DNA from: an uncultured Trueperaceae bacterium
GTDB lineage: Bacteria > Deinococcota > Deinococci > Deinococcales > Trueperaceae
Reading direction: 5' to 3'
Length of the DNA: 64,000 nucleotides
Assembly (NCBI GenBank): GCA_963815215.1
Contig: CAWFFU010000011.1
Span: 448,001 to 512,000, forward strand
The first letter of the stretch is position 1; each line of letters starts with the position of its first letter. The notes under the pieces were generated by a model. The model had not been told where the DNA came from. It ran no database searches and saw nothing but the letters and a program-made list of their open reading frames with translations. Shown piece by piece: positions 59,233 through 64,000 of this stretch. The translations under genes were made by a program, and so were the position numbers.

Positions 59233-59432
59233 GAGGACCTCCTTCCAACTGCCACGCCCACCTTACACCCCGACCCCCACGCGCCTCCGGGGGGCGGAAG
59301 TATGGCCCTGGGCGAGCGGCAGCGGTCGTGGTACACTTCCGTTTGCGTTTCGAACCCAAGGGGAACTCGTGCCACGCCGCATCCGAACGTGGCCCGATCC
59401 CTACGGGACCACGAGTTGACCCTGGAGGCAAG

Positions 59433-61538
<2,106 letters not shown>

Positions 61539-61560
61539 GCCGACGCGCGAGTCGGAGCTT

Positions 61561-61591
61561 CACCGGGGCGGCGCTTGGCGCCGCCCCGGTG
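61561..61591. terminator. 14-bp hairpin after hppA
   Basis: CACCGGGGCGGCGC-TTG-GCGCCGCCCCGGTG. Confidence 0.75.
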
Positions 61592-61758
61592 TCCGTGAGG
61601 TCACCGCGCGAACGACCGGCAACGGCCGCGCGCCGTCGCGCGGATCACCGGCACGACGCGGCGAACGGTAGGATCCCGGTCGACCTGGTTGCAGGCAAGG
61701 TTGGTGGGGTGGAGGTGAGACTCGAGGGGTGGGTCACCGTAACCTCGAGCGGCGCAAC
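61561..61758 (-). ncRNA. Candidate anti-SD sRNA
   Basis: perfect TATAAT at 61765-61770 (minus), CTCGAGG hairpin, TCACCTCC tract, ends at hppA hairpin. Confidence 0.4.
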
Positions 61759-61840
61759 TTTCCAATTATAGCGCAACCCCGCCCGCCACACCAGGACACC
61801 GCACCCCAAACGCGGAAGGCGCTAGGACTATCATCGAGTC

Positions 61841-62025
61841 GGAAGGAGGTCTAAACCATAGAGGCAAAAGACCACTTCTCGAAGAGCAACCCTCGGCCCA
61901 CTAGAGGCTCGACCGAGTAACTCCTCAGACGGAGGAGCACCGACAGAGCAGAACAAGGCGATCGAGGGTTGCTCTCATCTCAGAACAGGGAAGCTGCGGC
62001 CCCACCCGGACGGGTGCGGGCCTTT
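61841..62025 (+). ncRNA. Candidate ~185-nt structured RNA (6S/Ms1-like)
   Basis: -10 TATCAT 61829; 13-bp inverted repeat 61883-61895/61963-61975; terminator 61998-62024. Confidence 0.55.
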
Positions 62026-62364
62026 CGGTTGCTCCCGGCGCGCCCCTGGCATACCCCGAAGCGCGCGCTCCCGTGCGGCGCCGAGGTGTACCGGACCCGA
62101 GAGCGCCCCACGAACAGAATCCCCTGGGCAGACGCCGGCCTCTCGGCCGAGGCCCGGCAGGTCCGCCATGGACATTCGTCCTTGCCGGGCCGTGCGGCCC
62201 CCTGTTACAACTCCGATGTGAGGGTCCGACATCGCCCGTCGCACACCCTCCGAACTGCTACGCTGGAGTCAGGCGCACCGTCAGGCGCACCGTCTGGCAC
62301 TCAGCGTCTGGCACACCGCGCGAAAGGCCGCATGCGCTTCGGTGCGGCCCGGAGAGGAAGCTCG

Positions 62365-62601
62365 ATGGCATACGTGATCGCTGAGCCCTGTATTGGCGTC
62401 AAGGACGCGTCCTGCGTGGACGTCTGCCCTGTTGAGTGCATCTACGAAGCCGAGGACCAGTTCTACATCCATCCCGAGGAATGCATCGACTGCGGCGCCT
62501 GCGTCCCGGCCTGCCCGGTCGACGCCATCTTCCCCGAGATCGACGTGCCGGACGAGTGGTCGTCCTTCACGGAGAAGAACGTCAAGCTCTCCGGCCTCTG
62601 A
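62365..62601 (+). CDS. fdxA: 7Fe ([3Fe-4S][4Fe-4S]) ferredoxin
   Basis: YVIAEPCIGVKDASCVDVCPVECI, CIDCGACVPACP. Confidence 0.93.
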   Translation: MAYVIAEPCIGVKDASCVDVCPVECIYEAEDQFYIHPEECIDCGACVPACPVDAIFPEIDVPDEWSSFTEKNVKLSGL

Positions 62602-63344: not shown

Positions 63345-64000
63345 ATGATCGGCACGGATAGGATTCGCGCGCTCCAAACGGAAGTCGCCACTCACTCGGC
63401 CCCCATCCTCTCGCTCTACCTGGACGTCAACCCTGCGCGGCCGGAGAACGCTCGCAAAGCCTACGCTCTGAGGGCGCGCGCCGCCATGGATCGGCTCGGC
63501 CTCGACAAACGCTACACCCGGGAGATCGTCGCCAGGCTGCGCCAGGACCACGGCATGCCCGATGCCCGCACGCTGGTGGTGTTCGCCGGCGACGAGCCAG
63601 GGGAGTTCTTCGAGAGCTACGCCATCCGACCCGAGATCGCGCTCGTCGAGGCGAACGAAGGGGTGGTGGCGCGCTGGGGCGAGCCCTACGTGGCCCCACT
63701 GCTGCTGACCGTGCAGGAGAAACGTCGCTACCTGACGCTGCTGTTGGCGACCGACCGCGTACGCCTGTTCGAGCTCTACCTCGACGAGGTCGTCGAGCTC
63801 GACGCCTTGGTGCAGCCGCTCGACGACAGCGACTGGCGACCGCTGCGCGAGCATTCCACCGGCGCGCCCGGCGTGCCGGCTCGCGGGGGATCTGGCAAGG
63901 ACCTCTACGACAAACGGGTCGCCGACTGGCGTAGGCGCTTCCATCTCGAGGCAGCACGCCACCTCGAGCGTACGGTCGAGGCGCTCGGCGGCGGCACCCG
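63345..64000 (+). CDS. Bacterial aeRF1-like (baeRF/Balon-like) protein, 3'-truncated by window; absent from ORF track
   Basis: SD AAGGAGG; manual translation MIGTDRIRAL..PILSLYLDVNPARPEN..WGEPYVAPL..DRVRLFE, open to the window end. Confidence 0.75.
   Translation, partial: MIGTDRIRALQTEVATHSAPILSLYLDVNPARPENARKAYALRARAAMDRLGLDKRYTREIVARLRQDHGMPDARTLVVFAGDEPGEFFESYAIRPEIALVEANEGVVARWGEPYVAPLLLTVQEKRRYLTLLLATDRVRLFELYLDEVVELDALVQPLDDSDWRPLREHSTGAPGVPARGGSGKDLYDKRVADWRRRFHLEAARHLERTVEALGGGT

Follow-up and report, generated by a model that had tools for sequence, protein, structure and literature searches.

A structured small RNA common in Trueperaceae whose 5′ end resembles the infC start site

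We describe a new family within the structured bacterial small RNAs (sRNAs), found in the window, i.e., the whole 64,000-nucleotide stretch of Trueperaceae DNA that was analyzed. The RNA is encoded by an independent, stand-alone gene rather than being a leader. It folds into a 5′ hairpin and a long rod with an invariant core, and its 5′ end has the layout of the start site of infC, which is unusual for an RNA of this kind. The reading that we favor, tentatively and a little short of calling it probable, is that this is a ribosome-engaging, IF3-discriminated riboregulator; ribosome binding and dependence on IF3 are what we infer from the 5′ end. To our knowledge, few regulatory RNAs have been characterized in the Deinococcota. 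A search of the full-text literature, main texts only, returned no report of this Trueperaceae RNA, and there is no Rfam 15 model for it. It adds a well-supported, Trueperaceae-wide structured RNA to a phylum without a recognized 6S RNA in 61 Deinococcales genomes. Its 5′ domain copies the sole start-site design known in bacteria for IF3 sensing, and if the favored reading is true, this would be the first small RNA gated by start-codon fidelity. Even if the IF3 reading is false, the invariant internal-loop core is a candidate for a new protein- or ligand-binding RNA motif.

A first-pass annotation of the sequence had proposed a discrete promoter-to-terminator structured RNA of the noncoding type at this locus. 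It had named a −10 box, hairpins, a stem, helices, a Shine-Dalgarno (SD) sequence AAGGAGGT, and an open reading frame (ORF) beginning with ATA, all of which lie exactly where it had placed them (Table 1). The existence of a discrete structured RNA in the Deinococcota is borne out by a conserved −10 box, a covarying fold, and a 3′ tail. Over 185 nt, the minimum free energy (MFE) is −81.2 kcal/mol, versus −58.7 ± 4.3 kcal/mol in 200 shuffled sequences (z = −5.2), with none of the shuffles as good. The rod alone reaches −45.9 kcal/mol (z = −6.4) and the 5′ hairpin P1 alone reaches −12 kcal/mol (z = −2.6). The reverse strand of the same 185 nt folds nearly as well (z = −4.9); we assign the RNA to the plus strand from the G-U pairs in the long stem and from the −10 box, which is conserved.

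Table 1. Features of the sRNA locus in the window, and the infC start region of the same genome
Feature	Position	Strand	Remarks
hppA, H_PPase pyrophosphatase gene	59328-61538		736 aa; Pfam H_PPase, E = 1e-271; upstream of RNA
GC-rich perfect hairpin CACCGGGGCGGCGC..GCGCCGCCCCGGTG	61561-61591		directly past hppA stop; without T run
Divergent −10-like box TATAAT	61765-61770	−	TTG(C/G)G and then a hairpin lie past it (block 61753-61770)
Conserved block between the two −10 boxes	61791-61808	.	seen by eye in alignments
−10 box TATCAT	61829-61834	+	predicted sRNA promoter
Structured RNA gene	61841-61983	+	up to 62025 including second terminator
P1, 5′ hairpin	61841-61879	+	GGAAG/CUUCU and GGUCU/AGACC helices; AUAGA in loop
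Inferred RNA 5′ end GGAAGGAGGU, SD-like	61841-61850	+	can pair with 16S rRNA 3′ tail
AUA, start-like codon, noncanonical	61858-61860	+	8 nt past GGAGG
Mini-ORF, 20 codons plus UAA	61858-61920	+	crosses rod 5′ arm, ends in invariant core
Rod	61883-61975	+	P2 closes internal loops, P3, P4, and distal hairpin P5
P2, 13-bp stem AGAGCAACCCTCG/CGAGGGTTGCTCT	61883-61895 with 61963-61975	+	
Core 5′ strand CCCACUAGAGGCUCGACCGAGUAAC	61897-61921	+	contains UAG (61902-61904) and UAA (61918-61920)
P5, distal hairpin	61921-61937	+	length and sequence variable
Core 3′ strand CACCGACAGAGC and A-rich loop AGAACAAGGCGAU	61938-61962	+	
Tail past rod CAUCUCAG	61976-61983	+	likely 3′ end if the rod is a terminator
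Second GC hairpin plus UUU	61996-62025	+	−21.1 kcal/mol
4Fe-4S ferredoxin gene, small	start 62365		downstream of RNA
infC start region	L110 1468-1485, contig C3 of the window's genome		loci L111-L187 in relatives

In an alignment of 68 distinct sequences, pairs form in 94.4% of cells, versus 80.4% in shuffles, and 26 of the 32 pairs carry changes on both sides, with slid controls at 53% or less; the alignment behind these figures was fitted to the model and so favors the structure. RNAalifold, run on a model-free MAFFT alignment, still gave compensatory changes in 14 of 32 pairs and the same succession of elements: P1, a long P2, internal loops with P3 and P4, and a variable P5. All seven model pairs of P1 vary, six of them with changes on both sides, and 89 to 93% of its cells are paired. 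This hairpin holds GGTCT/AGACC at 61848-61852 and 61869-61873 and pairs the SD with an anti-SD-like strand, ACCACUUCU. In P2, changes on both sides are found in 10 of 10 pairs, with 97% of cells paired, and in P5 in five of the five pairs scored. P5 is 17 nt long in the window and ~65 nt long in locus L014. Covariation supports the fold, whose invariant bases are located in the loops and in P3 and P4 and read CCACUAGAGGCUCGACCG.GUA along the 5′ strand and ACCGAC.GAGC along the 3′ strand. Hardly any change is seen in P3 (GCUC/GAGC) across the 68 sequences, and P4 is a second short, nearly invariant helix; in the window, the inner rod helices read GCTC/GAGC and CTCCTC/GAGGAG. Within the core, the 5′ strand contains an invariant GAGGCUCGA, its other bases being nearly invariant (32 sequences), and on the 3′ strand ACCGA..GAGC is nearly invariant.

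Where does this RNA start and end? A TANNNT hexamer with free middle bases begins 12 to 13 nt ahead of the start of the RNA model in 54 of the 68 distinct sequences. Our promoter call rests on this conservation, as a strict-consensus scan gave no sigma-70-type promoter and no terminator (0 sites). That scan requires both a −35 box and a run of 5 or more T, features that are often missing in this phylum. For D. radiodurans, PMC12340547 includes a report that TANNNT by itself acts as a promoter. The transcription start at 61841 is an estimate from the distance to the −10 box. At the other end, 28 of the 68 sequences have at least 5 T in the 10 nt past the stem, up to UAUUUUUUU; the tail is U- or U/G-rich in many relatives and poorer in the window's genus. 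Such a tail after the rod suggests that the rod is probably the RNA's own intrinsic terminator, which would set the 3′ end. The second hairpin aligns in most members of the window's genus (L001-L007, L010, L011) and is not seen in L008 or in other genera; it is a backup terminator specific to that genus. The predicted RNA is ~140 nt long, or 185 nt where the second terminator is used in the window's genus. Contigs from one metatranscriptome run (X16) fall on 61867-62032 and on the start of the ferredoxin gene, and these are weak evidence that the RNA exists in nature; the lack of cover on 61500-61866 carries no weight either way.

Homologs are common within the Trueperaceae. By blastn, 9 of 9 genomes from the window's genus carry the element, for a total of 19 among 61 relatives. 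An exact pattern of the core matched 25 stretches among GTDB species genomes, all of those whose titles name a taxon being Trueperaceae, Deinococcales, or Deinococci metagenome-assembled genomes. A covariance model built from 32 distinct sequences (R1) finds the RNA in 109 of 128 Trueperaceae genomes (a tally that takes in one unpublished genome, G130, with no match), including 65 of the 79 high-quality genomes and 29 of 36 genera, mostly in one copy. In a phylum-wide sample, R1 matched 11 of 12 Trueperaceae and none of the 138 genomes from three other Deinococcota families (0/82, 0/48, and 0/8). A wider model built from 80 matches (R2) recovered 7 of 8 Trueperaceae genomes and 0 of 32 genomes from other Deinococcota families, and at E ≤ 1 it found no copy in five Trueperaceae genomes that are 91 to 99% complete (G032, G148, G034, G135, and G011). 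Altogether, these counts show that the RNA is family-specific and common without being universal.

A few genomes have two copies. These stand in tandem, 190 nt apart, in G146 (L093, 2501-2662 and 2851-3011); they are near-identical, promoter region included, in G029, where one only adjoins hppA; and they are divergent in G031 (loci L015/L020 and L016/L086 for the latter two genomes). We also considered a phage origin, which we rejected: the single loose pattern match in a provirus record is a chance match, the model is negative on the surrounding 16 kb, and the record has no hppA.

The 5′ end is the part of this RNA that points to the ribosome. The first 10 nt (GGAAGGAGGU) can form 10 pairs, one of them G-U, with the 3′ tail of the 16S rRNA of the window's genome, and GGAGG lies inside the first 16 nt of the RNA in 65 of 68 sequences. 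The genome has 11 occurrences of this 10-mer, several of them 4 to 8 nt ahead of the ATG of real genes. Across the family, the SD is followed after 3 to 8 nt by AUA or AUC. A script that picked the nearest AT[ACT] returned ATA in 40, ATC in 25, and ATT in 3 of the 68 sequences; the picks for L091, L092, and L095 are doubtful, being distant from the SD or without one. A canonical start stands 3 to 13 nt past GGAGG in 3 of 68 sequences only, as GTG at +3, which is too close. The sRNA therefore combines an SD with AUU, AUC, or AUA at start spacing and has no usable canonical start.

This is the arrangement found at infC. In the window's genome, infC reads GGAGGUGAAGUCC-AUA-GCG, next to GGAGGUCUAAACC-AUA-G in the sRNA, and translation from the infC ATA yields IF3_N plus IF3_C. 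In 75 of 78 Trueperaceae genomes, infC has an in-frame ATA (55), ATT (13), or ATC (7) at this place; the AUH codon (AUA, AUU, or AUC) lies exactly 8 nt past GGAGG in 67 genomes, and in five genomes there is no canonical codon between the upstream stop and AUH. From these alignments, Trueperaceae infC appears to start at AUA, AUU, or AUC, with AUA the commonest. The AUU/AUC start of infC is described in PMC5499595 as a known target of IF3 autoregulation. The first-pass annotation had offered the SD and ATA-start ORF as an alternative to a structured RNA, and this is borne out in part: the layout is conserved and matches the infC start of the family; the peptide is not conserved. That the sRNA 5′ end has the infC layout (GGAGG, a spacer of ~8 nt, AUA or AUC) is an observation, and control by IF3 at the sRNA site would follow by analogy with infC. 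The two sites also differ: that of the sRNA opens a small structured RNA, whose short ORF is unconserved, rather than the IF3 gene, and their start codons do not track one another, the genus g12 having AUA in its sRNA and AUU in infC. The five Trueperaceae genomes without a detectable sRNA keep the AUA start of infC, so the RNA is not needed for infC control.

How might such an RNA work? In the scheme that we tentatively favor, a −10-only promoter would start the RNA at GGAAGGAGGU, giving it a 5′ domain that would amount to a complete infC-type initiation region, with a very strong SD, a spacer of 3 to 8 nt, and AUA or AUC replacing AUG. The SD would be partly masked by the anti-SD-like strand in P1. 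A 30S subunit would dock on this domain, and because the start codon belongs to the class rejected by IF3, initiation would be rare and would depend on IF3 activity. Docking or translation would melt P1 and the base of the rod and could thereby switch the invariant core, presumably a site for a protein or another ligand, between folded and unfolded states; docking would in addition keep RNase J off the 5′ end. The mini-ORF would usually stop in the invariant core, with the rod and the U/G-rich tail doubling as intrinsic terminator. The partial pairing of the SD within P1 counts against an initiation function, and the AUA/AUC, instead of being a codon, may represent an RNA motif (AUMGA).

The most serious alternative, which we regard as somewhat unlikely, keeps the structure and discards the start site. 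Here the RNA would be a structured sRNA whose core binds a protein or ligand, with the SD acting as a stabilizer only and the AUA/AUC and ORF being meaningless; the 5′ SD hairpin would protect the RNA either through 30S docking of the STAB-SD type or as a 5′ stem against RNase J. The position of the invariant bases, in internal loops between covarying stems, speaks for this alternative, being like that in the aptamers of riboswitches and in RNAs that bind proteins, and there is a precedent: an SD at the 5′ end is described in PMC4113751 as blocking RNase J1 via 30S binding (STAB-SD). The sRNA has a 5′-proximal complement of the 16S 3′ end, in a host with RNase J (an RNase_J_C match in a 592-aa frame of the window's genome). 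It is similar to the STAB-SD of cry3A mRNA in Bacillus thuringiensis in that the SD stands at the extreme 5′ end, is complementary to 16S rRNA, and has no canonical start behind it; it differs in heading an sRNA instead of a long mRNA, in being partly paired, and in having a near-cognate start at the proper spacing. The lack of a conserved peptide, and of a significant link between reading frame and stop codons (see below), also suits an RNA that is only stabilized at its SD. A mere stabilizer would have no use for an AUH at start spacing in nearly all of the 68 sequences with canonical starts excluded, or for a site so closely resembling the start of infC.

It is tempting to go further than the favored scheme and to see the RNA as a decoy or sensor of the translation-initiation checkpoint, a counterpart on the ribosome side of what 6S RNA is for RNA polymerase, although we consider this extension doubtful. 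The super-strong SD together with an IF3-rejected AUA or AUC would hold 30S-IF3 complexes, or would admit them only at times of lowered IF3 fidelity. The ribosome would next enter the invariant core and stop there, where a release-factor-like protein (baeRF_family10) might act, and the fold of the RNA with its core partner would report the state of initiation.

Could the RNA instead act by base pairing in trans, with the anti-SD-like ACCACUUCU or the conserved loop CCACUAGAGG as the seed for ribosome-binding sites in mRNAs? It is a stand-alone sRNA with a terminator, and CACUUCU, as read from the sequences, can pair with SDs of the GGAGGUG type. However, this candidate seed is already paired inside P1. 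For CCACUAGAGG, the matches listed include no exact 11-nt complement in the genome besides its own antisense strand, and the other exact 11-nt complements among the matches listed are scattered GC-rich strings. Hfq was not found in the window's genome (97% complete), which speaks against pairing of this sort and led us to reject an Hfq-dependent reading in general. We therefore hold base pairing in trans to be very unlikely.

The mini-ORF raises the question of whether the RNA is in fact a micropeptide mRNA, with 12 to 21 residues translated from AUA or AUC and the structure serving only as a stabilizing 3′ part. In favor of a peptide, the SD is strong and correctly spaced, the start codon class is shared with infC, and the ORF, which runs from AUH through the 3′ strand of P1 and into the 5′ arm of P2, has 11 to 21 codons and reaches a stop before the RNA ends in 66 of 68 sequences. 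A frame of at least 12 codons is expected by chance in over half of random sequences, by our own estimate. An N-terminal I-(E/D)-x-x-(D/T/N)-H-(F/S) also recurs; these codons are, however, the P1 strand that pairs with the SD, and the residues that the peptides share are limited to what the RNA constrains. Among the 68 sequences there is no conserved peptide or frame: the C-terminal halves differ, 1-nt linker indels put them in different frames among close relatives, and the lengths are 12, 15 to 16, or 20 codons. Furthermore, conservation is as high along the 3′ strand of the rod, which lies outside the ORF, as along the 5′ strand. These patterns make a functional peptide unlikely, and the reading of the whole RNA as a micropeptide mRNA highly improbable; translation as an act, without a function of the peptide, is possible. 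The RNA resembles SgrS/SgrT, RNAIII/hld, and SR1/SR1P, which are structured sRNAs that carry a ribosome-binding site and a short ORF. Those dual-function sRNAs have canonical starts and conserved peptides, unlike the AUA/AUC start and unconserved peptide found here.

In 51 of 68 sequences, the stop of the ORF falls within the core, at the invariant UAG in 32 and at a UAA/UAG column 14 nt further on in 19; the ORF ends earlier in 9, a few codons later in 6 (several by a new UGA in the core), and nowhere in 2. Relative to the core, the frames split 43/22/3, and the third frame, which is free of stops in the core, is used by 3 of 68 only. Counted naively, a stop occupies the UAA column in 22 of 22 in-frame sequences versus 17 of 43 out-of-frame ones, and the UAG column in 35 of 43 in-frame versus 14 of 22 out-of-frame, as if stops persisted in frame and decayed out of frame. 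An independent-pairs sign test of frame against stop retention had only three to five pairs and gave p = 0.5 to 1. The link is unsupported once relatedness is allowed for, and we do not use it as evidence.

The first-pass annotation had identified the RNA as a candidate for binding RNA polymerase, like 6S or Ms1 RNA, in which case it would sequester the polymerase, with its rod and loop mimicking open promoter DNA. Our results do not sustain this identification. The likeness to 6S RNA (RF00013) is a general one: the RNA is stand-alone, mostly single-copy, and of the abundant type, and it is structured, at roughly the size of 6S RNA (140 to 190 nt), as a rod with an internal loop. Rfam 15 gave no family at its gathering score in the whole window, and at E ≤ 10 there were six weak matches to unrelated families in 61500-62400, neither 6S nor Ms1 among them; the weak "Rubella_3" matches come from the hairpin past hppA. 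RF00013 likewise has 0 matches at E ≤ 10 in the genome of the window and 0 in 61 Deinococcales genomes. This leaves the 6S niche formally open, but with RF00013 absent from 61 of 61 Deinococcales, its absence says nothing for our RNA being the missing 6S. Structurally, the 5′ and 3′ ends are unpaired with each other, as the 5′ end forms its own hairpin and the rod is internal, and the rod, ~90 nt with a loop of ~9 by 10 nt and short distal helices, is about half the 6S span. In further contrast to 6S RNA, the loop sequence is invariant, and the RNA has its own intrinsic terminator and a 5′ initiation region; it is also missing in the other Deinococcota families sampled and in some Trueperaceae. 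Ms1 of actinobacteria, at ~300 nt, binds core polymerase. Our RNA shares with it being a structured sRNA of a high-GC bacterium, and it differs in that no Rfam 15 family matched. The resemblance to Ms1 in the order of sequence blocks, which the first-pass annotation proposed, was not reproduced by any tool. In all, we consider a polymerase-sequestering role most improbable. Two other known classes were rejected from the gene content of the window's genome (97% complete): a Y RNA, with 0 matches to TROVE/Rsr (PF05731) and a positive control in D. radiodurans, and a sponge of the CsrB/RsmZ type, with 0 matches to CsrA (PF02599).

The neighborhood of the gene shows that it stands alone. In 27 of 54 loci, hppA lies 158 to 654 nt upstream on the same strand, and it is not seen in another 21 loci, each of which has 1,400 nt or more of sequence upstream. 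The latter have unrelated neighbors, i.e., amidase, MFS, ClpB, a two-component system, urease, and others, and their downstream gene is often convergent; no conserved same-strand downstream gene emerged in these 21 loci, for which 150 of 161 candidate ORFs were scanned. Such diverse and often convergent neighbors exclude that the RNA is the leader or riboswitch of one constant downstream gene. Action in cis, as a leader or attenuator, is barely credible, as the downstream genes differ between genera and the next gene in the window begins ~340 nt beyond the second terminator, even though the mini-ORF enters the terminator stem as in leader-peptide attenuators and an amidase gene lies 76 to 150 nt downstream in two genomes of one genus. 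As in the trp/his-type attenuators, translation of the short ORF would melt the 5′ arm of the terminator stem; the RNA differs from them in having no conserved downstream gene, no run of regulatory codons, and an invariant core in the stem.

Several features around the gene may be recorded here. The GC-rich hairpin directly past the hppA stop is probably the hppA terminator. Beyond the ferredoxin gene lie a Usp gene and then a baeRF_family10 (release-factor-like) gene, which occupies 63345-63998 and continues past the end of the window. In 23 genomes, which belong to five genera, a baeRF_family10 gene shares the strand of the sRNA and lies 0.8 to 6 kb downstream; the gene is present in 64 of 128 genomes and, outside the 23, is located elsewhere or was not found. 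Its nearness to the sRNA may be plain synteny or a functional link.

Upstream, the minus strand has a −10-like box of its own. A minus-strand TANNNT is found in 62 of 68 sequences within a 35-nt search window, and ~50 sequences share one position for it, 70 to 72 nt ahead of the RNA start. TTGGGGC-like bases follow 6 to 8 nt past it, and then a GC-rich hairpin, with no conserved ORF after the box. This box accompanies the sRNA even in loci without hppA, and in two loci it faces a response-regulator/histidine-kinase operon. The conserved block between the two −10 boxes is CCAGGAC...ACCCCA in the window and CTAGG-N9-CCTAG in many relatives; its flanking arms look complementary and seem to covary in some loci, and it is possibly a regulator site or a hairpin. 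Lastly, loci of the genus g12 (L022, L026-L028, and L041) have a promoter-like TTGTCA-N18-TAAAAC ~25 to 60 nt after the sRNA, within ACTTAAGTCCTTGT...CTGCTAAAAC, which presumably serves the next gene.
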